A DNA stretch of 63,996 bases, filler included, from Elsinoe ampelina (lineage: Eukaryota), in the NCBI GenBank assembly GCA_010093995.1. It is 4 parts of 4 records of this genome, joined end to end, with 100 filler letters (N's around TTAATTAATTAA, not from the genome) between each part and the next. Parts side by side here need not be neighbours in the genome. Positions count along the whole stretch, not along the records: positions 27,954 to 55,781 come from ML992558.1; 3 more parts are not named here. The stretch is one strand, 5' to 3'. Each line of letters starts with the position of its first letter. The first letter of the stretch is position 1. The notes beneath the pieces were generated by a model, which saw only the letters and a list, made by a program, of their open reading frames with translations, was not told the DNA's origin and searched no databases. Made by a program: the position numbers and the translations under genes. Of this stretch, positions 19,446-50,808 are shown piece after piece.

Positions 19446-20207
19446 ATTCGAATGCTCAATCAGTGCAATCACACTCGATGCAAGGACATGGAAACAGTGT
19501 AAATGGATCAGCAAGTTACAAAGAAATTCTGTATTCGCGGAGAAAAATCCCGAAATTCCGGAAGCGGTACTCCGATCTCGGCCGATCAAGTTTGGTAGCT
19601 TCTTGCTTACCTAAGTACGTGACATTCAACAGGTACACTTGGTCTGTTGTTGACTTCATCATTGTCAATGGTGTACAACATGTAATGAAGGATACGATTG
19701 AGACGAAGTGCACGGATGTATTTCTCTACAGGGTCATGCTCTGCAGTTGGCAAACCTTTCTCACCACGCCGCACAAATACGCGCCGAACTGTGCCACCGG
19801 AGCCAATGTCTTCTCTTGGATTCCGCGCCCTCGGCGACTTAGCGACCCGGCCTGAGGCACCTTTCATCTCCTATGTGTCTTTTTAATGGATCTAATGCTC
19901 CAACCGTCTCCGATCCTTCGACTAGCGCTGCCGCACGGTCTCGGATTTGCATACACCATCGTCAGAAGACGCGACGAATCGGGCTTTCACAGCCATTCGT
20001 TCTACCAAAATGTAAATGAGTGTCTACTAGGGTCGTTCCTCCAAGATTGGTGAGTCATATTCGCTTATTTCCCTGGAATATCCCTTCCCTGTCCCCTTTC
20101 CAATTTGCACAATAAATTAGAGAAGTTTTGTCCCACTGTTCGTTTTCTCTGTATTTGGGCCTTTTTGAATTGCACTTCTTGTACGGCCATATTTATTCAG
20201 AATCATC

Positions 20208-21953
20208 ATGAGCGGCGGGGTCCCCATTGCAGTCATGGTCAGCGAAGGGCCTGTTGCAGCAAGCCCAACGCCTCCACCACTTGCGTCGGACATTACAAGC
20301 GCCTCACATAATCTGCCGCCGGAATTAAGACGAATACCACATACCAGAGCCGGGCTTCAGAAAGGTCAGGGCTCATCGGGTCTCCAAAGAAGGTTTCGGA
20401 ATTACATCAGTGGTCGGCGGAAATTGCCTGTCTTTCCCAGGGCATTTCTTACGGGGCCCGCCAGGAAATCGGACTCCAATGTGATACAGAAGTATGGTTC
20501 AACGACAGAGATATTCAGGTTGATGAAGACCATGACGATCACCAAGGCCCTTGTAACCTTTTACCAGAAGCATCTACCTGGTCTCCGGCTCGATAGTGGC
20601 ATGTCGATGAGGGAACTCTTGAAGAAACTTCATCTGGTCGACCCTGACGAAGGGACTGAATTTGCGGTCGACGCTCCATGGATGACAACCTACTTGGAGT
20701 GGCAAGACATTGCACACAAGCGTCCCAAAGCCTCGGTGGAATGGCTACCAATGAGGAAGCGAAAGAGAGCGAGTTACCCCACGGATACAAAACGTCGACG
20801 TACAGGCGATGATACCGCTCGTCATAGTATTACTCGAGGGGTCGAACAGTTCGCTGATGATTCGTATCATGGGTCGGACACCGATGAAGAAGTAGACAAT
20901 GCGTTCCCCACGGTCAGACAGCCATTGCTGAGGGACAACATCACGGTCACCCACAACACGATACATCCAAACCACGATAGATCCACACCTGAATCACCAG
21001 TATATGATCATGTGCCGGACCTAGGTCACCGCAGAAGCGAAACATTGAGTCCAACCCACCAAATCGACGAAGCACCACGCCAGGCTCCATCGTCCTCTAC
21101 ATCTACCACGCCATGGTCTCGAAGATCTCCAAGATTACCAATCTTCTTCGCAGGCGAGGGCCGGGACATCAACACCTACAATTTGAGCATAATTGAGAAA
21201 TACTGCTGCAATGAACGCAACCTTTCCAGGGTTCTTCCCGCAGATCTGCAACGTTATATCGCCATGGCCGCATTATTGGCGGAGACAGACCATGGAAGAA
21301 GCCACAAGCATTTGCACCTCTACATAATGTGGCTGAATGACTGGCTGGACACGAATCTTTCAGCAATGGAGCAGCTACAGGAAGCAGAATTCCGCATTTG
21401 CCCTTTCGATGATTATCCTGACGATTGTCAGGCGTACATCAGGACATTCTTTAACAATACATCGTCGGAAAGAGACCAGGAAATTGCGTTTGGTGATCAA
21501 ATCAAGACACTTGCTGCCGGTCAGCTGGTTGATCCAGAGATCTTGTGTACTAGCGACAAGCTTCTGAACTTCGACAAGTCTCAGCTAGCAGAGATGACAA
21601 GGCTAGTAACGAATATAGATGAGAACGCCGATCTCATCTTCTCTCAAGCAGATCTGGATTTTATTGCGGACCAATATCAAATACCGCATCACCTCCGGAC
21701 TATGGATGAAGAGTTGAAAGGCAGCAGGATTCGCATGCTCAATACACTACTACATCAAGGGACACAGCTTCCCCACGGCCGATGTCTGTATCGTACGTAC
21801 TGTGAGTGGGCTTTCAAGTTTGCCCAATGTGTTTGCGAGAATTACCAAGAGATGGTACATGTTTTAGACGCGGACGACGACGGTCGTGGTGAGATTAGTA
21901 GGATGGCAATCATGGGTGCTTATTTCGTGTTGAAGACGTCGATGCAGCAATGA
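20208..21953 (+). CDS. Orphan 581-aa protein, tandem paralogue A
   Basis: Long intronless ORF; colinear motifs shared with 22300-24045; basic NLS-like MRKRKR/KRRR. Confidence 0.8.
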   Translation: MSGGVPIAVMVSEGPVAASPTPPPLASDITSASHNLPPELRRIPHTRAGLQKGQGSSGLQRRFRNYISGRRKLPVFPRAFLTGPARKSDSNVIQKYGSTTEIFRLMKTMTITKALVTFYQKHLPGLRLDSGMSMRELLKKLHLVDPDEGTEFAVDAPWMTTYLEWQDIAHKRPKASVEWLPMRKRKRASYPTDTKRRRTGDDTARHSITRGVEQFADDSYHGSDTDEEVDNAFPTVRQPLLRDNITVTHNTIHPNHDRSTPESPVYDHVPDLGHRRSETLSPTHQIDEAPRQAPSSSTSTTPWSRRSPRLPIFFAGEGRDINTYNLSIIEKYCCNERNLSRVLPADLQRYIAMAALLAETDHGRSHKHLHLYIMWLNDWLDTNLSAMEQLQEAEFRICPFDDYPDDCQAYIRTFFNNTSSERDQEIAFGDQIKTLAAGQLVDPEILCTSDKLLNFDKSQLAEMTRLVTNIDENADLIFSQADLDFIADQYQIPHHLRTMDEELKGSRIRMLNTLLHQGTQLPHGRCLYRTYCEWAFKFAQCVCENYQEMVHVLDADDDGRGEISRMAIMGAYFVLKTSMQQ

Positions 21954-22299
21954 TTGTCCTGGGAAATTGCTTGGTATATTGCCTCGAGAACCTGTTTCAG
22001 ACACAATTTCGTACCATGAGAATCTTCGCCGTAAAGCTCGCGAGGTACAACTATATGCGGAACGAATCTGAAGTTTCTTTACGTTTCCACGGCTACCCGC
22101 CTGGATGGTTGAGGATGCTATTGGTTGCCAAAGTGGTAACAAACGAAGCAATAGCGCTAAGGCCCGAAGTGGCGATACAGGTACGCGTCGCCAAAACATC
22201 TCGCCGAAAACGAAGGATTTTTCATCTCGCGAACGTTGCAGTCAATCATCGTGACAACACTCCAGAATCTCTTCGAGAACATACTTTTGATGAGCAGCG

Positions 22300-24045
22300 A
22301 TGGCAACGTCTCAACAAGCATCGAAAAGTACCACGGGCATCACCTTGCGCCTCCCAGACATCCTCAAGACCGTCCCAGATCCAACATCATGGACGACCCT
22401 CACTGCAAAGCAGAAGTGTGCCTGGACGAAATGGCAGAAGCGACTTGCTGATGTCCTGGCTCTGGACTCTCCAGTAATAATTCCCTACATGTTCTTACAG
22501 GGAGTCGGCCAACGGCCCAATGGCCTCAATCAACGACACAAGGATGCTATGTTGGCGAATATATGTGCCATGCCATTTTTCGAGGCACTGAAGCTGGCAT
22601 TCGACGACAAGCTGTCTAAGATATCGACGCACGCGATGACTCGACCTGGTGAAGTTGCAGCTGCATTGATGCTCGAGGATCCATTCGCAGAAACTCCACT
22701 GGCCATTGACGGACCGTGGATGACTGCATTCTTGGACTGGCAATACACCGCATGCAAAACACCCAAGGACGAGATTGAGACAATTTCTGAGGAGGAACAC
22801 ACTCGTCTGATGAATCTCAACAAAGCTCGTCCTGTTCATACCCGTCGTACCTCGAAAAGGTCCTTGACTGACAGCGACGATGAGGATTCGGATGATGAGA
22901 CGCCACTCGTAAAGGTCAGACGAGTGCTCAGAAAGCGACATCGAATCGAAGAAGAAGGTGATGAAGATGTGCCAGAAGAATCGGCAGACGACGTGTCCCC
23001 GAGATACATCCAAGATGAAAGCGACAGTATGATCAAGAAGCCAACCCTGCATCGTCAGTCGAATGCCTCGGTCTCGACATCAAGGAGCGGGACACTGTCA
23101 AATCATGTGCGCATAATATCCCCATCGACCCTTGCTAAGATCAGTCACGACAATGCGAGAGTGAGCATCTCGGAACTCCTCAACGTCAAGAACAACAACT
23201 ACCACAGTGGTTGGCGTCGCTTTCCGGGACCATTCAAGGGCAAATCCGAGGAGGTCATTGGTGTCAACTTGAGTTTGCTCAAGGCCCTCGCTCTTCAGCA
23301 TGCCGGTTCTTCGCAATTCCATCCCCGCGATCTCGAAAGATACGTCAGGCTTGCAGATGGATATTACGACGGTGACTACTCCACGGACTTCGCTGTTCAA
23401 CATCTGGACATCTTCACTATGCTGCCCGCATTCTCAGAGACTCTCCGCAAGAGAGCTGACACCAATCAAATCAAGATGAAAGAGGATGAGCACGCCAATT
23501 TCGCGATTGATCTCTTTGCCGAGCTTCCTGATCATTGTCAATCATATGTCGTGAAAACGCTCGGTCGCTCCGAACTCACACGTCAAGAAAAGATGCTCGT
23601 CGGTGATTCCATCAAAACACTACCACTTACCGAAGAAGGGATCGACATTTCCCTTATCACCATGGACACGCCCCAATTCTCGACTCTGGAGTTGGAGAAG
23701 ATGCTCGAGACAACCAAGAGGAATCTCCTCCTCGGAACTTCCGATATGACACTGGATCCGGCCCATATCCTGAGCAAATATGACATCGACATGCCATCCG
23801 GTGAACGCTTCTCCCACAGCTACATTGGTGGACTCCTCAGTCACGTTCTGTCTGGTGAATCTGGACAACAGCTTATCTACAATTATTGCGTGTGGTCTGT
23901 CGAGTTTGCGAAACAGATCGAGCGCGGATTTGGCGAGGTCAAGCGCTTCAAAGGGTTCCTGGGAAGTGCCGACTACGAGGAGATGAAGCTGGCGATTGTG
24001 TATGCCTATGCGACCTTGAGCGAAAAGCTTGAGGCAAGCAAATGA
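22300..24045 (+). CDS. Orphan 581-aa protein, tandem paralogue B
   Basis: Long intronless ORF; AIDGPWMTAFLDWQ matches AVDAPWMTTYLEWQ of paralogue A, among other blocks; basic RRVLRKRHR. Confidence 0.8.
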   Translation: MATSQQASKSTTGITLRLPDILKTVPDPTSWTTLTAKQKCAWTKWQKRLADVLALDSPVIIPYMFLQGVGQRPNGLNQRHKDAMLANICAMPFFEALKLAFDDKLSKISTHAMTRPGEVAAALMLEDPFAETPLAIDGPWMTAFLDWQYTACKTPKDEIETISEEEHTRLMNLNKARPVHTRRTSKRSLTDSDDEDSDDETPLVKVRRVLRKRHRIEEEGDEDVPEESADDVSPRYIQDESDSMIKKPTLHRQSNASVSTSRSGTLSNHVRIISPSTLAKISHDNARVSISELLNVKNNNYHSGWRRFPGPFKGKSEEVIGVNLSLLKALALQHAGSSQFHPRDLERYVRLADGYYDGDYSTDFAVQHLDIFTMLPAFSETLRKRADTNQIKMKEDEHANFAIDLFAELPDHCQSYVVKTLGRSELTRQEKMLVGDSIKTLPLTEEGIDISLITMDTPQFSTLELEKMLETTKRNLLLGTSDMTLDPAHILSKYDIDMPSGERFSHSYIGGLLSHVLSGESGQQLIYNYCVWSVEFAKQIERGFGEVKRFKGFLGSADYEEMKLAIVYAYATLSEKLEASK

Positions 24046-34497: not shown

Positions 34498-35848
34498 ATG
34501 ACACCTGCCAGAATCGGATTCGCGCCACGCAATTTGTCAACGATGGAACAAGCTGATCGAGCTCACTTTCTTTGTTATGCCGGGCAGACCTCTGACATGA
34601 GGGAGCTGCCGGCGGTCTGGTATGGTGAGCTGGAATTGAACAATTGCCTACCAGATTGCGGACAAATTCAATTGGAAACACAATGGGCTTCGATCCCACT
34701 GTTCTTCCGTTCTTACCAGGGGCCGCTAATTCCCCTTGATCGAAGATCAATCAAACTGTGGAGCCCAATACCGCTTGCAGTCAAGAATGTGAGATCACCG
34801 GACTGACATACCAGGTTGTGGTGCTAAACTTGCCAGAACTTTCAGGAGCTCAAATGCCGGTGCAAGAGCAAAGACGAATGTTCTCTGATCAGGGCCCTTC
34901 TATTCCTCAGTGCAATGCCTGTGGGTTCCTTACCCTCATTCATGTCTCGGCACTGATCATTCGCAGGTGCCCAAGCACATCGACGCTTGTGATCACTGCC
35001 CAAAATCCGTCGGACCACAAGTCTACACACTTCGGTTCGGCCCAGCTTTCAACATTCACTTCAAATACTTCATATCGCTTCCCCAAGAGATACGATACAT
35101 GATCTACCGTCTGGTAGTGGTCAACAGCAGTGCCGATGGAGTCATTACAATGAGCCGGTCAGAGATCAGAGACCCACCAAAGCATAACAAGAGATGCTCA
35201 GGTCCGTACGGGGCTTGGCTGACTTGTGCTCACTCGTATACAACCGTCAGCACTTATCATCCTGGAAAAGAGCACTGGCTGGCACTGCGTCTTGTCAACA
35301 AGCAGATCAGTCAGGAAGTCACAGATCAATTCTTACGAGAGAACGAAATTTGCCTGCAGTCGACCACTGAAACTACCTTCTTCTTGAGGACTTGGATGAC
35401 CTTCGGACAGTCCCTAAGGTCCATTTCTCTTACAGAGATTGACTGGAATTTTGGGCGTGAATTTGTTGTCATGGTCATGGAGTACCCAGATCTATGGCGC
35501 ATCCGGCTCGAACCAACGACTGCCCCATACCAGCTCATGATAGCGGCATGGGCGATGAAGCCTTGGCTGGATCATCTCGGCAGTGACAAAGACGCCGTCA
35601 ATCACATTTGCAAGACTGTCACATTTGGCGATTGCAGGAGATGTAATCTGTCTACCAAGCAGGGCTTCGCAAAGCAGAAAACCTGCCAATGCATGAATGG
35701 TCACAGTCGAAGGCTACGAAGATGCTGGGTAGGCTTCAAAGTGTTGCTGGAGGCACAGTTATTCATCAACAATATGCAGCTGGATGAGGAGTCAAAGGCT
35801 CTTTGGGATGATGTGGACTGCGATATACTGACACAGATGCCGGGATAG
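34498..35848 (+). CDS. F-box-like/Cys-knuckle family member 1 (probable introns 34789-34836, 34921-34966; start uncertain)
   Basis: FISLPQEIRYMIY; LRLVNKQISQEV..FLREN; C-terminal CRRC...CQC. Confidence 0.7.
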
Positions 35849-36198
35849 CCTAGCACGGGTACGGAGACGAATATGATATGGTTTTCAATCAGACTGCGGT
35901 GTTGAGAGATGAACCAGAACCATACTAGGTATTCTTGGCTAGTACTCACATGTCTGTAAGACTATAGACAAAGAACTTTACTCTCGCGAAAAGGCCATGC
36001 CTTTGAGTCCAACGGCGATCGGATTGAGACAAAGCAGGCTTCAGATCCTCTTCTCATGAAAGGTATTGTTCCCTTTCAAATCAAGGACGAAGACCGAGAC
36101 TCACGACTCGTTGGACAGCCTGCTGGAGCCTCTACAAATATGTGACCAGCGGTCCACCATTGACAGGACTACCTTTCTTCTTTTTACAACCCACCACC

Positions 36199-37110
36199 AT
36201 GTCGGACTCCCTCGTGACGATGTTTTCCAGGCTGCGCCTTACAGACATTGACAAGAAGTCCGACAAGAAGCCCGAGAAGAAGCCCGAGAAGCTCGGCTTC
36301 CTTTTCCTGCCCCCCGAGCTGCGTCAGATGGTATACAAGCATGCTATACCTAGTGCCACCTACGTTCAAGTCCCGATCGGCCTCAATACCGTGCATGCTT
36401 CCTCAGACGATGACAAGCACACCACCCTGAGCCTCGCCAGCGCCTGCAGGACCACCCACGCCGAGTTCGCCCACTTGTACTACCAAAACAGCCTCTTCCT
36501 CTTCTGCGACAATGAGGACGCCCGCGCCTTCTTCGCCGCCGTGGGTCGCAACGCACCTCACGTCCGCCGCATTCAGATCCTCGATCCGATGCAGGAGAAC
36601 ATGACCCACTGCTTTATGCCTACAGTCTGGTCTTTCGCCGACAACCTGACTTCCATCCGCCTGGACTTCCCGGCTTCCGTTGTCGATAACGTTCGCCTCC
36701 CCCAGGCCGTCGCTCTGTGGATGACCAAGACCCGCTTTTGCCCAGAGGAGGGTGCCCACAAGTACTTCATCGGGGGCGGCCGTGTGCCCATGTCGATTCT
36801 GAAGCAAGTCATTGCCGGCACCTTCCCCGTCGGGCCCGTCGAGACACGCACTCATTTGGTGGAGAAGATGGTTTTCGCTGTCTGCCCTGGCCATGGCGAG
36901 GGGTCTATCTTCAAGGGCAAGCAGGGTGACCTGGATTGCAAGTGCCGTGGAGGAGTCAACTATCGTAAGCTTTACAAGGTGTTGTGGGAGATGTCGTGCT
37001 TGAGCAAGAGTGCTGTGCTCGATGTGTACGTCGGATATCGTAAGAAGTATGCAGATGGGCAATGGAGGATCAAGACTCTTGAGGAGGACGTTCCTGAGGA
37101 TGCGGAGTAG
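36199..37110 (+). CDS. F-box-like/Cys-knuckle family member 2 (intronless)
   Basis: FLFLPPELRQMVY; ACRTTHAEFAHLYY; CPGH...CKC. Confidence 0.82.
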   Translation: MSDSLVTMFSRLRLTDIDKKSDKKPEKKPEKLGFLFLPPELRQMVYKHAIPSATYVQVPIGLNTVHASSDDDKHTTLSLASACRTTHAEFAHLYYQNSLFLFCDNEDARAFFAAVGRNAPHVRRIQILDPMQENMTHCFMPTVWSFADNLTSIRLDFPASVVDNVRLPQAVALWMTKTRFCPEEGAHKYFIGGGRVPMSILKQVIAGTFPVGPVETRTHLVEKMVFAVCPGHGEGSIFKGKQGDLDCKCRGGVNYRKLYKVLWEMSCLSKSAVLDVYVGYRKKYADGQWRIKTLEEDVPEDAE

Positions 37111-37487
37111 GCTGGGTGCATTTTGATGTGGACGGCGATATACAGACACAAATGTCGGGATAGCTCAGGGTAGACACTACGACCAGCAGTCCCACATATC
37201 ATGGTTGATAGGCAAGCCATCATTCTATCATACATAATGCCGGTCACTAATAATATCAAAGAACTCACACAAAGAATCGTACTCTTTTGACAAAGCCATA
37301 CGTCAAGAACAAAGCAATGTGCCTACATGGAACAAAGTATCGGCGCCCTCTTCATGCGAGTCATTGTCTTGTCCAAGCGTATGACAAAGACTCAACACCG
37401 TCCTTGTCGCCTATCCCAACCTCTACAAATATGCCCCCAACCCTCACCCACTTACAGAACCACCTTTCTTTCTCTTTTCCCACCGTC

Positions 37488-38345
37488 ATGTCTCAATCAC
37501 TCATCAAGATGTTCTCCGACCTCACCATCACCGACAAGGTCCGTTTCCTTGACCTCCCTCCTGAAATCCGTCAGATGGTCTACAAGCATGCCGTCCCCGA
37601 CACGGTGTACGTCCGACAAGACCTGCCCGACTCTACCATGACCGCCACCAACCCAAACAACAACGACCACACCACGCTCAACATCGTCCGCGCCTGCAAG
37701 ACCACCCATGCCGAGTTTGCTCACATGTACTACGGGCGGACCGAGTTCTGGTTCACCGACGTGGAAGACGCCAACCTCTTCTTCGCCACCGTCGGCGCTA
37801 ACAGTGCACAGATCCGCCACGTCCGCATCGAACACCCCGACCCCCTCACCCCATCCCTCGGTTTGCAAAGCGTCAGTTGGGCCTTTACCGAGCACCTGAC
37901 GACCCTCCGTCTCGACCTCCCGGACTCCATCATCGACGACCCCAAGTTGCACAAAGCCCTCGCTCACTGGGTCATCAAGTCTGACTTCTGTCCCGAGAAG
38001 AAGTATATCAAGGCCATGTTGGGTGGTACGCTTCCTCTCGAGACCTTGAGGGAGATTGCCAATGGCAACCACCCGAAGGAGACTTGGACTTCTACGGTTG
38101 AGAAGTTGGTCTTGGCGCCTTGTCCTGGTCATGCCGAGGGGTCGATCTTCAAGGGGAACAAGGGTGATTATAACTGTCAGTGTCGCGGTGGTGTCAAGTA
38201 TCGCAAGGCCTACAAGGTGTTGTGGGAGTTGTCGTTCCTGGACAGGCACAATATCAGTGGTGTCATGCTCCACGGTAAGAGGTTCCAGGATGGTAAGTGG
38301 AGGGTCAAGAAACTCAAGGAGAAGGTCCCCAAGGATGCGGAGTAG
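37488..38345 (+). CDS. F-box-like/Cys-knuckle family member 3 (tandem duplicate of member 2)
   Basis: FLDLPPEIRQMVY; ACKTTHAEFAHMYY; CPGH...CQC; flanks also resemble member 2. Confidence 0.82.
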   Translation: MSQSLIKMFSDLTITDKVRFLDLPPEIRQMVYKHAVPDTVYVRQDLPDSTMTATNPNNNDHTTLNIVRACKTTHAEFAHMYYGRTEFWFTDVEDANLFFATVGANSAQIRHVRIEHPDPLTPSLGLQSVSWAFTEHLTTLRLDLPDSIIDDPKLHKALAHWVIKSDFCPEKKYIKAMLGGTLPLETLREIANGNHPKETWTSTVEKLVLAPCPGHAEGSIFKGNKGDYNCQCRGGVKYRKAYKVLWELSFLDRHNISGVMLHGKRFQDGKWRVKKLKEKVPKDAE

Positions 38346-38690
38346 ATTGGGTGCATCTTGATGTGGTGGTCGTGATATGGTGGCCCAGGTTGAAGACCTG
38401 GTAGCAGTTCGTCTGCTTTTTCCTATGTTCTGACAATGATGGTGGCAGATAGCTATACGGCTTTGAATGAGAAAACTTTCCCGACCAGTGTTCCAGCATC
38501 TGATGTGATATGGTCCGCGCTCGCCACACCGGTCATGTGCTTTCACATGCTCCTTGGCTCCTGCCGCAAATTCTCCGGTCGTGACTCTCAGTCTTTCACG
38601 AAAGCCTTTACCTCTTCTTCTTCATCACCACACTTCCATTCTCTCTTGCACGTCACCAAGTGACATCTATCTCTTGGTAGTCTTTTGATC

Positions 38691-39832
38691 ATGGCGATAG
38701 CACCTGGCGTATTTCGCAACTTGATGGAGAGGCAGGCGATCAGAAAGAGACAGCGTCCAATCGCTGGCACAGATACTGAAGTGACAGCATCACAGACCAC
38801 TCCGGATCAATCAAAGGGCGGTGTGACCATCCTCCAGGAGCCCGGACCGGGAGTCATGCGCAGCCTGCCTACCCTGCTCACCACTTACGGGACCCTCGCC
38901 ACTTCTTTCTCTCTGGCTACTTCAGCGGATCAGGGCTCCGAGGTAAGAGTTCACATAGGTGTGACCAAAGACTTGGACTCACATGCCTTCTAGTTCGACG
39001 CCAGTCGCAATGTCTATCGCCAAGTCGTTACGATTGAGTCTTCCATACCCTTCGAGGTCATTCCGGTTAGTGTCAACAGTGACATCCTATTTATTGTGGG
39101 GATACTGACTAGGATCAGAAACTCGTGAAGAAGCAGCAAGACAAGGACACTCACAACTTCACAATCCGCATGTGCCCGACCGACCGTAACTATTTCCGCT
39201 TCATGGATCTCCCGGCCGAAATCAGAGCCATGGTGCTGAGCCATGTGCTTGCCCGCAGGGAATTCATTCGCCTGGACTTCGACCGTGCTTCAAAAAAGTC
39301 TACCATGCCTCCAAGGGCATACATCGGCAACGACAATGCCATGCTCTTCGTCAACAAGTTCCTACACAACGAATCTGCCGGAATCTTCTATGGAATGAAC
39401 GAATTCCGTTTTGCGTCAACGACTATCTTTGTCCGCTTCATGAAAATGATCGGGAAGAATGCTGGCTTCATCGGTAACCTGAAGATTGAGTACAGATGTC
39501 TCACCAATGGATTTGAGGCCGCGGCGGCACTGTCAACTTGCCACTCGCTCGAGCGACTCCACTGGCCACTCTCTTGGTCTCAGCGCCACACTCACGAAGA
39601 GCAAGTGCAGGCGTTGTACAAAGCCCTGTGGTGTTACTTCGCTAGACATGCCAACTCATCGGGCGGAATTGAGGGTGGCATGGCTGGGATTTCCATCGGA
39701 TCATGTGGTCCGAGGCACGCCCAGTATGCCCCCAACCTGATCCGGCCTTCGGCGACGGACTGTGATGCATGCAAGTTCCGCAACGACCTCCGTGCACTAG
39801 CTCTCGGAGACTTCCCGGTGCAGAAGGAGTAG
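38691..39832 (+). CDS. F-box-like/Cys-knuckle family member 4; introns 38943-38993 and 39066-39112
   Basis: Phase-0 introns join three exons; FRFMDLPAEIRAMVL; IFYGMNEFRF; CGPRH...CDAC. Confidence 0.78.
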
Positions 39833-40163
39833 ATAGGCTATGGCGATGCGTTTGAGGCTGAGAAATGAGGTGTGGCGACAGATGTGGATAGGTGGTTTGC
39901 GTCTGTCATTCTGGCACCAAATTTGTTTGTGGTGCCAGACAAGCAGGAAGACAGTGTGAGATTCCCCAAAAGTGGGCGTCAGATCCGCCACTATCTCAAG
40001 CTGCAGCGCTTGAGGGCTGTACATATAGCATGCATTAGAGATCTCCGATGTCAGCGGCTTTTCAGTTCCGCTAGAATGAAACAAGTTATTGAGAACATGT
40101 TCTTCCGCTTTCACGATCGCTACGTCATGATTCCAGAGTACCAGACTCCGTTCAGTACCAACT

Positions 40164-41436
40164 CTATCCTCCACCTTCAGACGTTGTAGCAATGAACTCC
40201 TCCTCCGTCAGAATATGGTGCGGTCTACAGGCTGGCTTATCCCCGGGACGGAAATCATCAACAAGCTGCCAGATTCGTCTCCTGTTCTTGAGTCCTCGGG
40301 GACACGATGGTGAGTCTGGAGCTGGTAGGAAGACATCGTCCTGTGCCAGGGTACGTGCAAGTGCTTCCCAGTCCCACTCTTTGCCTCCGGGTGCTGCGGG
40401 ATGGGCATTGATTACCGTGCGATCAAGATCCCAGAGCCAGGGTAAGAGACCGTTTAGCAGAGCGTCTCTCCACATGAATGGGGGGAAGAAGTAGTTGGGC
40501 TCGCGGGATATATTGTCGAGCGGTCGGTGCTGAAACAGGATGGCGGATCTCAGCTCTTCCGGTAGAGCTGTGATGCGGTGAAGCAGTTCACCCCGGCCAT
40601 GGTTCGAATTAGGCATGTCTGTTTGCCATACCGAAGCCATGAGTGCCGGAATATGATCTGGTAGTGGTCGGAGGCCGCTCAAAATGGAATCCGTCAGGTC
40701 TGGGACATGCAGTGGATCTACTTCCAGGTACTGCTCCAGCGTTAGCTCGAAGGCGATGAAAGAAGAACAAATAGCGTCGATACTGACGTAGAACTGAGCA
40801 CAATACTTCTCGTAATCCTCGTCCCACCGGGGGTCTTCTTCCTGATTGTCGCTGTCGTCGTCGTCGATCAAATCGGAGAAGAGGTCCCAGCTTTTCATCT
40901 GCCACCGACCTGCACCATAGTATCGACTGGGGATCTCGACAAAATTGGGCAAGTTGTAGATGCTGGCGAACTGCACCAGTGGTTCCACAGTGTCCCAGAA
41001 GTGGCTTGTATTGCTGACCCTCGTCATGGAGTGGCCAGTGTGGCTCGTCGTGAATCTCTTGCAAATCTCCAGACAAGATTCATGGATGGCTATGATGGTT
41101 CTATATCGCTTCTGGTCGGGCGTGAAAGCCCAGTCCTCCCAGGATGCATTTGTGAGCAGCTTCTCACCCGTCTCTTTGACCGTGAAGCCACGAGCCTCCC
41201 ACGAATTCTCATCCCAGGTGGCAGGCAGCTCAATGATCATGGTAGAGTCCATTCCCTTTTCAAATATCGAGCATTTGGTCAGCAGAGTTGAAACTGCGAG
41301 CCAACTTCGCTGCCAGAGTGATCAGCGGGCTCCGCATGAGTGGCGAGCAACTCACCTTGACACTATCCAGAATGCCGGATCCTTGCCGTGAGTGAGGTAC
41401 CCCACATAAGATGCAGTAACAGGAGAAGTCTCCCAT
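40164..41436 (-). CDS. Pezizomycotina F-box protein of a different type (N-terminal CxxCG, C-terminal F-box); intron 41310-41355 and probable in-frame intron ~40732-40788
   Basis: MGDFSCYCILCG start; HESC; LPEELRSAIL; PWLWDL; WDWEAL; GLKNRRRIW. Confidence 0.75.
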
Positions 41437-42121
41437 GACTGAAGCCTTGGTTTTCAGATGCCGACGGAGTGATCTTCCATGAAGATTGAGGGATGGCTAT
41501 TCTGAGGGATGAGCAGCGCAGGGCTTGCCACGAAACACGCATTGACCCGCGCGCGTATGACAACGGATGCAACAGACAACAAAAGGGGAGCCAGCGGTAG
41601 ACCATTTGTCGCTGGGTACCATTTCAAGCATGTTTACATGATGATGATGGGAAGTGTACGCCACAGCTGAGGTTCCAAACGTGAAACTTCAGCCGCAAAA
41701 GCACCCGCCGGCCAAGAAACCTTCACAAACACTGCCTTCCAACCCATTGGGTCTCAAGCTCCGAACCACATTTTTGACGTGAGTACAGACCTACCAGAGA
41801 CTTGTCAGGTTTTCGACCGCGCCGTGCGATGTTCTGCTGCGGCTCAAGCGTACCAGCTCGCGACTAGGTTGGTGATTCAATGACAAGCTGTGGTTGGCTA
41901 TGAGATGCCACTGAGATGTGGTGAAACCAGCCGATCACGATCATGACCGCCTCGACCGACTGCACGAATGCTGCGCCATACTGTGCCACCGAAACCGAAA
42001 GCTGATATGGAGGGACTCACCGTTGTGGGCGCAATGGAGCTGTTGATGGGGTTGTGTATAAGAGCCAGCGGTTTCTTCGAAGGAGTAGAGTGTAAGTTGG
42101 GTTCTTCTTCCACACGTTCTC

Positions 42122-44903
42122 ATGATGACCCTCTCATCCTTATTCCTCTATTTTTCATGCTTGTTCGCACTAGCCAGGGCACGGCATGACGACTTCGCTC
42201 GTCCCTATCGACGCCAGAGTGCTCCAATCGACATAGTCCCATTTCGCAATGACACCCTGAATGCCACGGCTCCCTCGAGCAGCTTCGGACAACAAGGGAC
42301 CTTGGCTCCCATCAGCGACTTGCCGAGCAGCAGTGCTGCCACGAGCCTGTTCAGTACAACGGTATCACAAGATTCCAGTTCTTCGCCGTTCAGTAGTGCC
42401 GAGCTCACGTCTACGGATCTTCACACAATGAGCGACAGCTCCTCGATAATAGAGTTTCCAGTCTCATCCGAGAACACACCTCATACAATCAAGTCGTCCT
42501 TGGAACCTACCAGTAATAGAGCACCTCTTCCCATCATCACGCCTGTTGAATTGAGCACAGCTGCCGTATCTACCTTGTCAGGAGTCTCAACGGATACGCA
42601 GATCCGTACAACAGACAGCCGAGGTAATGAAGTGGTAGCACCTTTCTTCTGGAAATGCTGGTTCGGCTGCGGTAGCGGTGGCATGCTGCTGTTCGGAGTC
42701 GGCCCTGCTCCGGGAATCTACCCACCCCCGATGCCACCACCGTTCCCAGAACTGCCGACGATTACTATTGGTCACAATGGTATTCCTACTGCAGCAACGT
42801 CACCAGTCCCGACGAGACCTGTCTCTCTTCCCTCGGACAGCCCGTCAAAAACTAATGGAGAGAGTACCGAGACGTCATGCTCCGAAGAAGTAGTAACAAA
42901 GACGATGGTGAGCTGTTTAGCTTCTGTTTCTGGTACAGCCTCTGAAAGTGTCTCATGTATCACTTCTTTCGCGCCCCAAACGGGTTGTGAGATTGTTGGG
43001 ACGGTCACTACGACGACTTCCACCACTTCAACGACATGCTCCGCATGTCAATCGCTCTGCACCAGACTCCCAACCCCAACCGAGTGGGAGCAGTCCGACC
43101 AGGAGATAGATATGGCTTTCACTTACAGCGATGATAAGGAACAGAAACGGTCTATTGCTGGAAGAGTCTCGCTAGACAAGCGGAAAGCTGGAGGGACGTG
43201 GCAGAGTGGACCTTCTATCACTGAATTGGGAGGATGCAAGCTTCCAAATTCTGTTAGGTTACCAAGGTGGCCCGGAGGTCCCGCTCTTCTTAAAAGCGAC
43301 ACGTCGTCCAAGCCGGATGCCTCTCTGGGATTTGAGTCGATGGACCGGTGGTACGTTGCGGGTCTGTCTGGCTGCATACCGACGATCAGCAAAGTCTCCG
43401 GGCAGCAACTCAAAGACAATGCCGAGCAATACAAATTGCTGACGCCTGCTAATGTCGTACCCACCCTCGACCATGCGTACGAAAAAGGATGGCTGAGGGC
43501 GTTCTTTGACACTATGTTCAATGCTGACAACTGTGGACCTATGACCAGCTTGCTCTTCCGGCAATGTACTAATCTCCAAAACATCTTCGATGGATTGGCA
43601 GGGCCCGAGCATCTCGACTTTCTCGGTATGTCGCATTATGCTAACAATCGCTGGAAAGCCATGGTGAGTTGTGTAGAACTTGTCCTCCGAGGGCTGTGTC
43701 AGACTGACTATTGTGCAGATCATGCAGGACCAGCTGGCGACCCTTACGTCTAAGTACCGTGCCTGGAAGGTAGGCGCTGGCTACGTGTGGTCCGGCCATG
43801 GATACCCAGAGAACAAGGACGGCTTGCCACCTGCTGCCACGAAGGTGCTCGGCGCCAAACTGGACCTTGTGGTCAGAGTAGTTGGAGGTTCTTTACTCAT
43901 GCGGACTCCGACCAATATGCCACTCATGCAAGCAACTAACAATCGGCTCTATGGATTATTATTGCGTCTAGACAGTGAACTTGGACAAGACCTAGTCGCT
44001 GCTCAAGTGGGCTTTGCCAGTTTCGCTGATCGCTACAAGACCTACATGGACGACTTTGCCGCGGGCAAGAATGAGGCTGTTGCTTTGGTGAGAGAGCTTA
44101 TCAGCACAACTGAAAAGGACATCGAGGCGAGCAGAGTACTACCGGACGTGGTAGAGGACGAACTCCAGATCTATTCCTCAAAGCTGAACGAGCTCAAGGC
44201 TTTTGTCGCCAACGAAGATCAATGGGCGTTCTCGCTGCAATGGGAGTGGAAAGCGACCATACCGCTAGCGAGAAGAGCTGAAGCCTGCACCAAGCAGGAT
44301 GCAAACCCACAAACTACTGTCCAGTCGTCATCCGACCAGATCAGCACAACCTTGGACACCAATTTGACACCAACGCCGACAATGAGTGTCACCAGCTTAC
44401 CAAGCACCACCACGCAACGACCAAATTCTGCAATGGCCGGAGCTCTCATGTCCCTTTGGTCAAAGGCAGCAGCAGCAGCATCATCGGCTTCCGCAAGCGC
44501 AGCATCGGCGTCGTCCGCTTCCGTGGCATCAGCCTCGTCCGCTTCGGCTGCTGCAGCAGCATCCTCTTTGGCCGAAGCATCAAAGACAGTGGAAGCACCT
44601 CCTCCACCTCCGCCCACTGCCAGTTGCAAGGTCTCTTGGAAGGCAGACACCATGGAGTACTACATCTACGGTAAAGCGTGGGATGCAGCGAAGCTCGACA
44701 TTGATGGTGAACCGGGCAAGGGCGTCTTGGAGCAGACCAAGACGTGCGGTGAGATCACTCAGTACAAGTACGAGAAGCTTCCACCTGGAGATCGCTTCGA
44801 TTTTGAGATCTATTTGCACCACTGGCCTCAGCCTCTCAAGTCATGTATGGAGAAGGCGTTGGTTGCAGCTGGTGCACCGCCGGGTGCGTTTTGTGCGGGA
44901 TAA
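42122..44903 (+). CDS. Large modular secreted protein (Ser/Thr linkers, Cys-rich modules, dibasic sites); intron 43664-43718
   Basis: Signal peptide MMTLSSLFLYFSCLFALARA; phase-0 intron joins the 543- and 407-aa ORFs; DHAYE...FF...N..K domain; C-terminal four-Cys domain. Confidence 0.8.
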
Positions 44904-45682
44904 TGTTAGATAGCTGTAATGTCCGATGTCAACAGATGAATGTATGCTGAAAGGTTGTCAGTATCATCTTTTGGAGGTTGTTTCCATGCACAGCGAATTT
45001 TGTGTGTTTGATCATGGCAAATTGCGATCTGGGCTCAAAGCTCGCTTCTTGATATCTCCGAATGCCAAATCACGACGCAGCGTCAATTCATCCTGTCTCT
45101 CAGTCGTCTGTTGACATCGTTTTGAAAGACACGAGTTGTGGGAAGGAGCAAAGGATGGCGGTCAAACAAAGAAAGAGCTTCATTCGTGACCTCGGAGATC
45201 GGCAAGCTTCATTCCGACGTCCTTTCTTTCCACCGTGAGCAACGTTTCTACAATACAAAGCCATCACACCCGAATCTCGAGTCAAAAGTATTGTCCAGTG
45301 CTTGGAAATGAGGACGACGTCTGGATATATGCAATACGAGTCGTCAAGGGCGGTTTTGAGGTCCTCCATCGGATAGTCCACGAGCACATCCTGCAACCCA
45401 GCACCAACTTCGCAATGGTCCACCAAGTCTAGAGGAGTACCAGAAGAGACGGAGCAACATGGAAATGGTCCATATCGATGTCGATGTACAGTGCGATCAA
45501 GACCCTGTCGCCAGACCGAAAATACTACCAGGCACGGCCAGGGCTGGAGCGAGGAGGGTTGGAATGATCCAGGTCGTCTTTCGAGATCGCCATTGAACTA
45601 CCAGGAGCCAGGTACCAGGTACCAGGATGACAGGCGAGCATCCCAATTAACGCTCGCTTCGACTAGGTACTACCAGCACCCC

Positions 45683-47196
45683 TCAGTAATCCTCCAACCC
45701 TGTGTTCAAATACCAGGCTGGGTCTTGCTCGAGTTCTCTTCGAAATGCATTTACCGCCCGAGTGCGGTCTTGCAATCCCTCGTAGCAATTGCATCGGCCC
45801 CAGCATGTGTGGACGCTCTCTATCGACACAATCTGGCAGCGTCGCTGTATCGGCTCTGGGAACGGCATCAAGAAGCTGGCATCCTCCGTGGGCACAGGCT
45901 GGTCGTCAGAGCTATCAGGGCTGTTGGCGTTCTCTATGGAGTTCTTCCATAGTTGCTCGGGTGACGCTTCGCCGATCGTGGGGCATAGGATACCACCGGC
46001 GTACTCGGTCATCCACGCATCGAGCGGGTCGATGGGGGAATCACTAGCCCACACGATGGGGACGCCGCTGAAGTGCACGATAGACTCGTCATCTGAGCTG
46101 GCCTCGGAGCCTCCATCGGACATCACGTCAGCCTCACTCTCACCCTCCATGACGAGCTCCAACTTGACCTCTGGCTCCTGGCAACCGTCGCAGGTATGTA
46201 CCCGCACCTTGCTCAGGACTTCCTCTCGGGCCGCCTTGTCCCCTCCCATGCGCTTCACCCATGCCCTCATGATGAGGACAAAGGTCTGCTTCCAGTCGGA
46301 CGAGATGCAATCGACCTTGCCAAGCCGAAAGCGGGAGACATGGCGGCCCAAGAAGTCGACCTTGCTCGCGACCTCGACCTTCTTTACTGTCAAGAGCTCT
46401 TCCAGCAGCTCCATGCCGGAGGCTTCGTTCCAGGAGCTGACGAACCATTTCCTGGCCATGGTTAGGCCCAACTCTCTCGCCATCGAGCAGTACTTCAGAG
46501 CCGTATCAGACGACTCGAAAATGAAGATGTTCCGCTCGTAGAACATCCTCACTCCAGCGTGGCGGAGGTTGCGGCAGACCTGCAGTATGCAGTGGCGATA
46601 TGCCTTCCAGCTTACATGGTCTTCGGGAGCTTCCGTATCGGAGAACATGGTGGATGAGGGGGCGCCAATCTCTTCGGAATCTTCGACTAGGAGTAGCTCG
46701 AGAATCATGTTTGTAATCTCTCGGGGCAGCTCTAGATCGTGGGCTTTGTTCTTCGGGACAAGGAAGTCTGTCTGGTCGACAGCGTTATGGATGGTCTGAT
46801 TTGGTTAGCAGAGACTTCGCTAGCTGTTGGAGGAGCACTTACTCGAGTGTGGACGTTCAAGGAGATGTAATCATACTCGTCTGCTTCGTTGTTGGGGGTC
46901 GCATTGACTCTGCTCTGGGCATTGGGGTTGCTTCTGATGGTATTTGATGGTTCTGCATCATCCTTTGTTTCGGCGAAGCTGTCAGGAGTGCGATCGGTGG
47001 CTTTGTCGTCTCTCTTTGTCTGAGCGCGCTGCATCTCTTCTGCGCTGGAGGGTTCTCTGCGAGCATGTAGCTTGTTCTGGGACTGTCAGCTTCATTCTTG
47101 ATCTGCATAAACTGCACTCACGAGGATGTGGTTGAGGCGTTGTTGCTGGTGTGGTCTGGATTGATCCGCGGCCGGAGTTGTGGATGAGGACGGCAT
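45683..47196 (-). CDS. F-box-like/Cys-knuckle family member 5; introns 47077-47121 and 46796-46842
   Basis: Spliced LELPREITNMILELLL; ILQVCRNLR...MFYERNIFIF; VHTCDGC...(acidic insert)...VHTCWGRCNC. Confidence 0.78.
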
Positions 47197-48010
47197 TTTG
47201 AGCTTGGATGATTTGCTTCTCTGATTCTGATGGCAATGATCTGATCAATTGTAATCGACGAGGGGAAAGTGCTCAAAATGGTGTGCGCGGTGTTGTTGTT
47301 GTTTGGGCTGTGGGCGAAATCACACGGGAGAAGCCGACTTCACCAGAGGCACTGAAATTCGCTCACAGCTTGCCACCTGCTTTTGGAACATCTTGAGCAT
47401 GCGACACCCGAATTCGTCGAGGGTACACGGGCAACAGACGGGGCTCAATGTCTACCATACCCGAACCATGACAATCACGCTTCAAGATTTCAAGGACTGC
47501 ACTGTCAGCAGCATTTGGTCAAGCTTGACGGAGGCATTGATCAATTTCGCCCCCTGTGACACTCGCTGGCGCCGATATCCCACCAGGCTCGCTATGCATC
47601 CATCAGTCAATCGCATGCCCAGGCTCCCACTCGGGCTCTAGCCATTCTACCATCGTATGGCTGAAATCCTTGCAGACCACATTCGCGCTGACAACGATCA
47701 ATGCGGCGCTCGTGGCAGCATCGTTATGCTCAAGTGGTCACAGCAGCAATATATCATGAAAGGGACAAGCTGAATCGCCGGACTTCTAATTGTGCTCTAA
47801 CTCTGCCTGGTACTGATGCTGGTCTCTATCTCATGCTTGGGGAAATGCTTGGGGATATTGTCAATCATGTGGTCGCTGGCAGTATCTATCCTATTCTCGA
47901 GGAAATTTCTCGACTCTAGCCGTGGCCAGCTTGTTGTCCCTCGTGTATGCCAACACCTTGTTCACTCCTTCCGCCATGTCGCTCGCTGCGCCACTTCCCA
48001 CACCCTCAGC

Positions 48011-49300
48011 CTACATCTTCATGTCGATACGCAGCTTGTTGCCCTCCTTTGTGGTCAACCACGTCTTCTGCTCCTCGAACCACGCCGTCATTCGTGTCGA
48101 GAACCGCTCCCTTATCTCCTGCCAATGGAGGCAGAAGCAATTGTAAGCTCCCGGTTGTCCTGACTGGCATCGCTCGCAAGTACCGATGACTATGGTTCGC
48201 ATGACCGCGTTGAAATTCTCTTCGGTGACTCCTTTGCCGGCGATGGCCCATGTCGCAGAATGGATGAGAGCTCTGAGGTCGATCTCGTCCACTACGGATT
48301 CAGTTGTCATCTTGCAATCTCCGGACATGAGCTTGTCAAACAACTTTCCGGTTTGCTTGCCCGACATGACGCCGATCTTGATGTTTCGGATGTGAGTCGC
48401 GTGGGGCCCAACGCTGTCGAAGAACTTGAGCGCGCCTTCGGCTTCGTGAAAGTAGAAAGACCTTGTGCCGTAGAACATGGGAGCGACCAGGCTACGGAGG
48501 AATCTGTTTTTGACCTTGAGCAGCGCCGGACCAACGGTGTCTCTCGTGTTGCGTGTCTTTCCGGTCGGATAGACGCAGACGTCTCCTTGGTCGATGATGA
48601 CGGCAATGATCATGTTCATGATCTCCTTGGGCAACCTCATGAACGGGAAACCGGCGTGTTTATTGACAACGAGAGTGAGTCCGTCGCTGTGAAATCCGGA
48701 GAGGAGCTGGGTCTATTCAAAATCAGCGTATTTTCATTGACCGAGGACCTTCACGTTACTCACCTCGTGAATGGAGAAAGGCTTGCGAGAGATGATCTCG
48801 ATGACTGTGTGATAACCCTCGTACCCGACAATCGGCTATTGCTGTCAGCTTGACCTCAGCTCGTCGTCTGCAATAAGGTGGACTTACCTCGGCGTTGACA
48901 CCATCACCTGAAATGGACAGCGTGACGTGCTGGTGTGTACCATCCTGGGCTGCGATAAGAGCGCTTTTCTGGTTCGCTGCGCCTTTCCTTTCATGCTACG
49001 CTTGGTGTTAGCGCGCCCAAATCATCTCATGATACTGTAACTCACGAAGAATGGGTTCTTGTCATAAGGCTCCTCGCGATCTGCTCCACGCGTCTTCTTG
49101 TTGAACGCAGTCGTGGCTGCAGGCTTCTTGATTGCTTTCTTGGTAACACCCTCTTGGGGGACCTTGGTCTTCGTGGCAGTCTTCTTCGACTTGATGGAAG
49201 CGCTTTTCGCCTTGGCGACGGAGGTATTGCGTCTCGCTGCGCCACTGGCAGACTTTTTGTTTGCGTTGCGCGAGGCGTTGGCGTTGTTGGAGCGCGCCAT
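48011..49300 (-). CDS. F-box-like/Cys-knuckle family member 6; introns 48996-49045, 48836-48887, 48713-48763
   Basis: Lys/Ala-rich N-terminus; FPFMRLPKEIMNMII; MFYGTRSFYF; CERC...CFC; all three introns are phase-0 GT-AG. Confidence 0.8.
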
Positions 49301-49671
49301 GATGGTGGTTGACTTGGTGAATGTGTTGTGTGATAGGTGAAGTGGAAGAGGTGGCAGATAGGCTTTTATACACAATGCGCACGGACGCGGTATCTTCAAG
49401 CGGCAGGTGCCGCCCTAGCATCTGATCTGGTAGCGGCCGATCCAGTCCCCCGGTACAAGATCTTGAGGTCACGCTCGCTCAGGTATCATACCACTCGAGC
49501 CTATCACTACCAGGAGGCGGTCACAACTCGGTCTGAATCCCTGATTGATGCTCTGATATCTATGCTATCTGTGAAGTCTACTGGCTCCAGCTGCAGGCTT
49601 GCATGCTCAAGATTTTCTCATCTCTTCGACTCGGTCCTCATCCCCTCGACTGAGCTTCTCTGACGACCCGA

Positions 49672-50808
49672 CTACCACTTCTTCCACCCATGAGCCAGCT
49701 GCTTTCCAGCCCTGGTCTTCACAAACGCCTGATTATCCAGCTCCGTCTGCGTCCAATCCTCCATGTTCCTCGCCAGGAGCCCCCTCTCATAGACGGTATT
49801 GTCGCATTCACACCTTCCCCACCTGTCCTGGATCGGACTATCCTTCTCTCCCTCCTTGACCTTCTCACACTCCTCGCAACGATTGAGCAGAAACTTTGCC
49901 CCAATCCTCTCACGATTGGCATGGGAGACTCCAGCCTCGTGAACCTCCGCCATGATACTGCTCATGAAGTTCCTCGCGCCAGTACTCTGCTCCGAGTTCC
50001 CCACGTTCGCAAGACACAGTTTCACACCCTCGTTCCTGGCCACGTACTTGATCACATCGTCGCAGCTGGTCATGTAGTCGACGCCGTGGGCCCAGTCGTC
50101 GATCGTGATGCGCTTGACCTGGAACATGTGCTCTGGCGTCCTGCAGATGAAGTCCCACGCGTCGTCGGCGTTGGCGAAGCGGAACGTGTTGTTCCCGATG
50201 AAGATTGGCCCGGCGATGCGGCGGAGTCTCCAGTTGATCCCGAGCCACTCGGTCACGGGAAGGTCGGGGGCGGGGCGGACAGGGCGGACGCGGCGGCCGT
50301 TGACGGGGCCGGGGCGGGTGATGACCACGTCGGCGTTGTCGCGCTTGAGAGCGAGGGTGAGGATATGGTTCCAGATTTCGGCGGGAAGCTGGGGGTGAGC
50401 CTTGGAGGGGTCGGCGGGGACGACGGTGAACTTGAGTCTGCGTCCACTCCTGTTGGCGCTGCCGTTGTATTCGGTGGTGATAACGGTGCTTCCTGCTGGG
50501 GTTTCCGCATTGGCACGAGCGCTGGTGATTGTGGTACTCTGCCTCGACTTAGCCTCGTCCCTGAGGTTTGAGGAAGGGCTTACCGTATGGGTGGCGCCAT
50601 TCACATCGCGCTGTTGTTCGGCGACCGCATGGTCGAGTCGAGTGTTAACGCTCGTCGCACCAGCGAGGTTCTTGAGGGTGGTGGTTGCTGTCTTTGTCGT
50701 CTTTGTCTTCTTTGTGACTCCACCTTTCACAGCGGTGGAAGTGCGACTGGCCGCATTCTTTATCTCTCTGACACGCTTGGATGGATTGATCTTGCGTGGC
50801 GGAGACAT
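49672..50808 (-). CDS. F-box-like/Cys-knuckle family member 7 (intronless)
   Basis: Basic N-terminus (GGVTKKTKT); QLPAEIWNHILTLAL; IFIGNNTFRF; CEEC...CEC. Confidence 0.8.
   Translation of the reverse strand: MSPPRKINPSKRVREIKNAASRTSTAVKGGVTKKTKTTKTATTTLKNLAGATSVNTRLDHAVAEQQRDVNGATHTVSPSSNLRDEAKSRQSTTITSARANAETPAGSTVITTEYNGSANRSGRRLKFTVVPADPSKAHPQLPAEIWNHILTLALKRDNADVVITRPGPVNGRRVRPVRPAPDLPVTEWLGINWRLRRIAGPIFIGNNTFRFANADDAWDFICRTPEHMFQVKRITIDDWAHGVDYMTSCDDVIKYVARNEGVKLCLANVGNSEQSTGARNFMSSIMAEVHEAGVSHANRERIGAKFLLNRCEECEKVKEGEKDSPIQDRWGRCECDNTVYERGLLARNMEDWTQTELDNQAFVKTRAGKQLAHGWKKW

Follow-up and report, generated by a model that had tools for sequence, protein, structure and literature searches.

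Gene content of the array

We analysed a window of 63,996 nucleotides from the grape pathogen Elsinoe ampelina (assembly GCA_010093995.1), a gapped scaffold that contains an array of seven divergent, F-box-like genes (g1 to g7), placed on contig C58. An initial annotation had described seven genes of one architecture at this locus, and their reading frames are found there, four on the + strand and three on the - strand, open and intact in 7/7. For g1, g2, g4 and g6, identical proteins are on public record under Elsinoe ampelina. The genes and their C-terminal Cys/His positions (putative ligands) are as follows:

34543..35848, + strand: g1, 403 amino acids (aa); introns 34789-34836 and 34921-34966; LPQEIR at residue 148; ligands C333, C336, C350, C352
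36199..37110, + strand: g2, 303 aa from the ATG there; 2EXR over the cut-off; ligands C, H, C, C
37488..38345, + strand: g3, 285 aa; 2EXR and DUF7730 over the cut-off; ligands C, H, C, C
38691..39832, + strand: g4, 345 aa; two predicted introns; beta domain, putative split F-box and core resembling leucine-rich repeats (LRR); ligands C304, H308, C323, C326
45683..47196, - strand: g5, main exon 46804-45683; the start and two introns upstream were placed by eye; ligands CxxC ... CxC flanking a 129-residue acidic loop
48011..49300, - strand: g6, 378 aa; three predicted introns; basic low-complexity N-terminal tail and weak beta-domain match; ligands C324, C327, C337, C339
49672..50808, - strand: g7, 378 aa; single exon; basic low-complexity N-terminal tail; ligands C311, C314, C333, C335

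For g2, a start farther upstream, near 36056 and joined by splicing, would lengthen the protein by 29 aa. The basic tails of g6 and g7 consist of 21-25% Lys plus Arg.

The F-box-like LP.E motif noted initially is present in each gene. As LPxE(I/L)xx(M/H)(I/V), it occurs seven times in the six-frame translation of the 64 kb, always between 35,078 and 50,388, whereas 200 residue shuffles gave 0.015 on average and never more than 1; the pattern was composed after the genes were known, so this comparison overstates the odds. Aligned together, the seven proteins share an invariant L, P and E, three Cys and one Arg. The strong divergence reported between motifs holds for most pairs, which are 20-32% identical over their longest aligned stretches, but not for g2 and g3, a tandem duplicate pair with 47% identity over 274 residues.

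Family membership

The initial annotation assigned the proteins to no named family, a view that does not stand. Their front half corresponds to the Pfam families 2EXR (PF20150) and DUF7730 (PF24864), and a profile built from the seven proteins recovered 3,704 representatives of 50% clusters at E<=0.001. Against a 2EXR cut-off of 24.8 bits, g2 (26.8) and g3 (27.2) score above it and g4 (23.0) and g1 (17.5) below; against the DUF7730 cut-off of 27 bits, g3 (30.2) scores above and g1 (21.7) and g2 (19.5) below, leaving g1 with weak matches to both. No Pfam match to either family was found for g5 to g7, so that the profile check proposed in the initial annotation places two of the seven in 2EXR and one in DUF7730 but not the minus-strand genes. 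Close relatives of these minus-strand genes do exceed the 2EXR cut-off (an S. murrayae fusion protein at 26.4 bits and E. australis 0667 at 25.1), and g6 is grouped in the ESM Atlas with ascomycete DUF7730/2EXR clusters at 0.95-0.96. In an alignment of 94 rows, made of 90 library proteins picked as single-unit matches and four genes of the E. ampelina genome, DUF7730 was detected in 83 rows and 2EXR in 80 at E<=0.01, and F-box-like_2 in 12. By homology, the array genes appear to belong with 2EXR/DUF7730, as a variant with two extra modules.

The available text of PMC9621593 describes PF20150 as carrying two ExR motifs. Both were not found together in any array gene; the first is present in g1 to g4 only, and the second position reads E-A/S/F/V in g1 to g4 and lacks the E in g5 to g7. 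Elsewhere in the genome, 2EXR/DUF7730-like genes that lack the Cys/His pattern described below form two further clusters, each of five or six (L053 and L054 at C15:369-376 kb; L055 and L056 at C13:603-620 kb). We presume that array-type proteins are covered by PTHR42085. Domains of that family are called "of unknown function" in the accessible part of 10.1101/2022.01.24.477630. We found no functional paper on 2EXR/DUF7730 proteins in a literature search whose coverage lay outside subscription journals and bioRxiv supplements, which could list array genes.

A putative split F-box and an LRR-like core

The first conserved helix carries LPxE and a hydrophobic face (residues 141-152 in the g4 model). 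Compared with a profile built from 17 of the genome's canonical F-boxes (20 fetched, three dropped for stops), it aligned at an HHalign probability of 91-94%, and conservation of its L, P and E reaches 97-99% across the 94 aligned rows. These matches, together with F-box/LRR (FBXL) proteins in the structure search, uphold the suggestion of an F-box-derived module. The central L..(C/N)(K/R) block of the initial annotation corresponds to the second half of the putative split F-box plus the first LRR strand. We read the module as an F-box split by an insertion, in which helix 1 matches true F-boxes and the rest does so weakly. F-box-like_2 matched g3 and g4 below the cut-off (E 0.01-0.02), and searches with PF00646 and PF12937 found no contiguous F-box motif of 40-50 residues on the array's contig. 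Elsewhere, canonical F-box matches form clusters of five and three genes (C4:1382000-1389000 and C16:382000-386000).

An AlphaFold model of g4 built from the 94 rows has a mean predicted local distance difference test (pLDDT) score of 74.7 and a predicted template modelling (pTM) score of 0.66, with most of the core above a pLDDT of 90. It places a disordered N-terminal tail before the beta domain (71-126), helix 141-152, a strand and two helices to residue 201. The chain continues with three to four beta-alpha units and, after a low-confidence loop that links the ligand pairs, ends in a helix; strands 203-208, 228-233, 254-257 and 299-301 alternate with helices at high pLDDT. Such repeated beta-alpha units in a parallel sheet are those of an LRR solenoid, and the family profile also matched LRR chains (designed, of ribonuclease-inhibitor type) at E 5.7e-9. 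The top structural rows for g4 are mostly LRR proteins, among them FBXL3 (Z 5.2, root-mean-square deviation (rmsd) 6.0, 155 aligned), FBXL5 (Z 5.2, rmsd 3.9, 143 aligned), Dia2 (Z 5.1, rmsd 4.2, 136 aligned) and COI1 (Z 4.5, rmsd 4.2, 142 aligned).

Within the family, the Arg after LPxEI and a later Glu are 95% and 94% conserved (94-row alignment). Both are absent from g5, g6, g7 and their relatives in other Elsinoe, and because they are lost together, an internal salt bridge is suggested.

Cys/His clasp and N-terminal beta domain

All seven C-terminal Cys/His pairs listed initially are present, giving four conserved ligands in 7/7 genes. The two pairs lie 9-18 residues apart within each protein, except in g5, where 129 acidic residues separate them; the E. 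fawcettii counterpart of g5 (33% identity) is acidic there too. Across five distant pairs of proteins (~30-45% identity), 19/20 ligand positions are kept and the miss has a Cys nearby, which bears out the conserved four-ligand knuckle. The pattern occurs in 7/7 array genes, 4/6 genes of a related array on contig C27 and 1/24 other family frames in the fetched loci, where the single match is mis-anchored and 5/24 frames have tails cut short. Members of the wider alignment differ greatly in loop length and in number of Cys, with the first Cys at least 90% conserved. On these sequence comparisons the clasp appears to mark a subfamily, and we infer that it binds zinc.

An N-terminal domain of ~70 residues, of beta type, was overlooked in the initial annotation. 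Matches to it are strong in the C27 genes and in proteins from Fulvia, Oleoguttula and Vermiconidia, records that share the same architecture, so that strict lineage specificity does not hold. Within the array the domain is clear in g4 (15.9 bits) and weak in g6 (8.5 bits); it was not detected in g7, in the E. batatas copies of g1 to g3 or in the E. fawcettii g5-like protein, and the length upstream of the g2 F-box is too short for it. Beta domain and clasp co-occur in 25 proteins, with 9 and 20 having one only and 40 neither, in a set that is selected, related and often truncated, so that a p-value for the association would be unreliable. Modelled alone (88 aa from a C27 member), the domain folds into seven strands (pLDDT 78, pTM 0.59). 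No Pfam or PDB match was found for it, and a fold search among 48,161 chains gave a best Z of 2.5, with no Foldseek match and no usable Atlas hit. As modelled, the domain thus resembles no known fold in these searches, which does not make its fold new.

Divergence between species and copy turnover

Compared with their E. batatas counterparts, five array genes are 83-89% identical, versus 97% for a flanking S41 peptidase. Against E. australis, g1 is 41% identical and the peptidase 87%. These comparisons sustain the proposal of fast evolution. Skp1, for which this genome has one match, shows no difference between E. ampelina, E. batatas and E. fawcettii. In a tree of 61 core sequences over 164 columns, support is 0.91-1.0 for the five ampelina-batatas pairs (83-89% identity); the grouping of C58 and C27 genes has support of only 0.55 and includes two outsiders, so we claim no duplication order. 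The protein library hides proteins more than 50% alike, and orthology is therefore sure only where checked.

Searched in a 90% database, g4 returned only itself and an E. batatas protein at 45%, whose best match in this genome is in turn g4. Either paralogues of old standing were lost reciprocally, or a gene was missed in annotation, or an alternative allele of ancient origin is involved. For g4, g5 and g6, the top E. fawcettii matches among those seen are 29-33% identical; their locus tags (017220, 017240 and 017250) fall on one contig, which suggests that gene order is kept.

Copy number has also changed, in line with the birth-and-death turnover proposed initially. The repeated unit is

35804..37124, + strand: duplication unit of ~1.3 kb, comprising the end of g1, a spacer and g2

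Its edges share a stretch of ~45 bases that recurs after g2, and g2 and g3, which have upstream DNA and an upstream intron in common, form a 1.3 kb tandem unit. In run X12, from a relative at ~93-95%, one contig joins 35804 to 37124 and so lacks g2; gaps in the cover of this run (5' of g4, most of g5-g6) were not taken as absence. At 39728-39745, X12 also shows compensating one- and two-base gaps inside the g4 ligand loop, which may be an alignment effect of clustered substitutions. In S. murrayae, two units are fused in one protein.

The C27 array has six members, likewise of this subfamily, in which beta domain and Cys clasp are found. It differs from the C58 array in its flanking genes and in having one frameshifted copy (L051:7823-8756), in which the frame shifts after the F-box region and the clasp lies in another frame; this copy is either a pseudogene or an assembly error. 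In E. fawcettii, E. australis and S. murrayae, locus tags place genes of the C27 type on the same contig as genes of the array type, at a distance of ~17-30 genes, so that both arrays probably belong to a single region. As a cause of the divergence, repeat-induced point mutation (RIP) was rejected, as the genes show no RIP-like dinucleotide skew relative to two flanking genes.

Transcripts and neighbouring genes

Spliced contigs of sequencing runs served as a proxy for transcripts; no run is on record as RNA. Both g1 introns and the intron upstream of g2 are spliced in contigs of 3/4 runs. The g2 intron is GT-AG, and its counterpart in the 5' untranslated part of g3 (37212-37261), spliced in one run, is GC-AG. 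On the - strand, a GT-AG intron at 39105-39154, within the g4 coding region, is spliced in a run X3 contig that keeps g4's own predicted introns; it is probably read-through from gene g8, giving an antisense transcript over g4.

Two genes of other kinds lie between g4 and g5:

40164..41436, - strand: g8, N-terminal CxxC, two introns
42122..44903, + strand: protein of ~900 aa, one intron

Both g8 introns are spliced in 3/4 runs, and that of the larger gene in X3. The initial annotation labelled g8 an eighth F-box; it has an LPEEL stretch near its C-terminus, and the label is unconfirmed, as no F-box Pfam match was found. The ~900-aa protein has a hydrophobic N-terminus, Ser/Thr-rich tracts, a DHAYE stretch and a Cys-bearing C-terminal part; it is probably secreted, judging from these features, and had no Pfam match. 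In E. fawcettii a single locus tag separates the g4-like from the g5-like gene and, because there is only this one tag, either the ~900-aa gene or g8 may be absent there. Neighbours of the array include a major facilitator superfamily (MFS) transporter and a PHO4 phosphate transporter. Farther away, at 20169-24045, two convergent, orphan-looking open reading frames of ~590 aa each are alike in layout and share short motifs (WMTxxLxWQ); they are perhaps diverged paralogues.

Proposed function and alternatives

The architecture, ligand conservation, divergence and turnover, documented by sequence comparison and modelling, can be accommodated if the array encodes substrate adaptors of Skp1-Cul1-F-box (SCF) ubiquitin ligases, each uniting a split F-box with a short LRR and a variable loop clasped by zinc, and renewed by birth and death. 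We give this reading a probability of about 0.5. The proteins would be miniature F-box/LRR proteins, a subfamily of 2EXR/DUF7730 marked by the Cys clasp. Their split F-box would be refolded from helix 1 (F-x-x-LPxEIRxMIY) and a second half displaced from it (LLxVCKQIxxEA), around a variable insertion; three to four beta-alpha LRR-like units would follow, and one zinc held by four Cys/His would tie the variable loop to the capping helix. The F-box is predicted to dock on the genome's single Skp1, leaving the LRR face, the insertion and the zinc-anchored loop to choose the target for ubiquitination. Unequal tandem duplication and loss would turn the genes over, with divergence several times that of a neighbour. 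Skp1 binding and the ligase role are inferred from this architecture; no result in this analysis points to a substrate.

By analogy, and as a rather unlikely extension, the two linked arrays would be a fungal counterpart of nematode defence-type F-box repertoires: ~13 SCF adaptors that recognise and destroy foreign or selfish proteins, every one composed of the beta domain (its fold then undescribed), a split F-box, a mini-LRR and a hypervariable loop clasped by zinc. Targets might then be mycovirus, transposon or competitor products, with some adaptors made nuclear by their basic tails, and ancient alternative forms might be kept at single positions (as for g4, at 45% between sister species), as in allorecognition loci.

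Several results weigh against SCF adaptors. The second conserved block, where a canonical F-box has helices 2-3 (LxxVxKxW-type), aligns in register with the canonical F-boxes, but at a probability of 2% (P 0.02), and LPxE conservation partly reflects how the search profile selected its hits. The seven genes are absent from the 47 PF00646 and 57 PF12937 matches found genome-wide. Every structural Z for g4 is at or below 5.5, within the tool's background range, Foldseek found no match of the model in PDB at E<=0.001, and the loop between the g4 ligands (309-318) has a pLDDT below 50. The rate baseline consists of one flanking gene and Skp1. Among array genes, spliced transcripts are listed for g1, g2 and g3 only; no listed joint corresponds to a predicted intron of g4, g5 or g6 (three joints not shown), and X3 contigs run unspliced through these introns. 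The conflict version in particular sits poorly with three other samples that have 0, 2 and 3 substituted places over the covered parts of 19.9 kb, samples that are few, patchy in cover and possibly clonal. It also fits poorly with the synteny of the array, the initial annotation having held that a stable, syntenic group would argue against its proposal: by locus tags the array appears syntenic across Elsinoe, but it is not stable in sequence.

The F-box-derived helix could instead cap the N-terminal end of a small LRR solenoid as a structural element, with the Arg-Glu pair as its lock, in proteins that bind their partners without Skp1 and act as sensors, decoys or inhibitors without a ligase. 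Canonical F-box models miss seven of the seven proteins, the second half is hardly F-box-like, the g4 model puts a beta strand (158-160) between the F-box halves, and the Arg and Glu are lost together in g5-g7 as an internal pair would be, probably in one event. The LP-x-E start, however, is nearly invariant, and in true F-boxes it faces Skp1 and Cul1; moreover, the best structural rows include several F-box/LRR proteins in complex with Skp1, whose alignment starts at about the F-box. We consider such Skp1-independent binders the main alternative, though an unlikely one. Far less probable still are adaptors of Elongin C/Cul3 type like yeast Rad7, in which the N-terminal helix would receive Elc1, a Skp1 relative, in place of Skp1. 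Rad7-Elc1 is among the structural rows (Z 4.3, rmsd 4.7, 124 aligned), but that row covers the LRR part only (model 151-345), and the match of helix 1 to F-boxes is direct.

Independently of the biochemistry, the fast change might reflect relaxed constraint on redundant, weakly expressed paralogues drifting in a duplication hotspot, with no arms race, a possibility to which we give a minority but appreciable chance. The 0, 2 and 3 substituted places suit it, reading frames and ligands are kept, and paralogue clusters are ordinary in this genome (2EXR/DUF7730 on C13 and C15, canonical F-box on C4 and C16). Uniform drift, however, hardly explains g4 at 45% beside neighbours at 83-89%. Also against this reading, seven of seven frames are intact, without RIP-like skew relative to the two flanking genes.

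The 2EXR/DUF7730 proteins are numerous in filamentous ascomycetes and catalogued but unstudied. The array would define a subfamily by two modules that are not listed, and it offers a structural reading of these families as a split F-box with a short LRR. If the proteins bind Skp1, the fungal SCF repertoire would be larger and faster-evolving than Pfam counts suggest; if they do not, many fungal "F-box domain-containing" labels would be wrong. Either question could be approached at this compact, naturally varying locus, which is suited to work on Skp1 binding and substrates.

Comparison with known systems

Like 2EXR/DUF7730 proteins, g2 and g3 score over the 2EXR cut-off and g3 also over that of DUF7730, with g1 and g4 matching below the cut-offs. 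Unlike those families, the array has a C-terminal Cys/His clasp and an N-terminal beta domain, which lie outside the matched stretches and correspond to no Pfam family; its second ExR is ExA or absent, in contrast to 2EXR, and g5-g7 are unmatched.

For Caenorhabditis F-box genes, the available text of 10.1101/2020.07.09.194670 describes high polymorphism and positive selection among 330 isolates. The array genes resemble them (as far as that text goes) in being expanded and fast-changing, plausibly in the substrate-binding part, whereas array samples differ at 0-3 places, unlike the highly polymorphic genes of C. elegans.

The array proteins differ from FBXL3, FBXL5, Dia2 and COI1 in that their repeats number only three to four, an insertion splits the putative F-box and a Cys/His clasp sits at the cap; the likeness stands at Z ~5 only, and Skp1 binding is predicted from sequence and model. 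As the contiguous F-box motif is absent, F-box status is putative. What they have in common with these four proteins is an F-box-type first helix followed by a parallel beta-alpha solenoid, and by this architecture the best reading is that the array proteins work like FBXL proteins.

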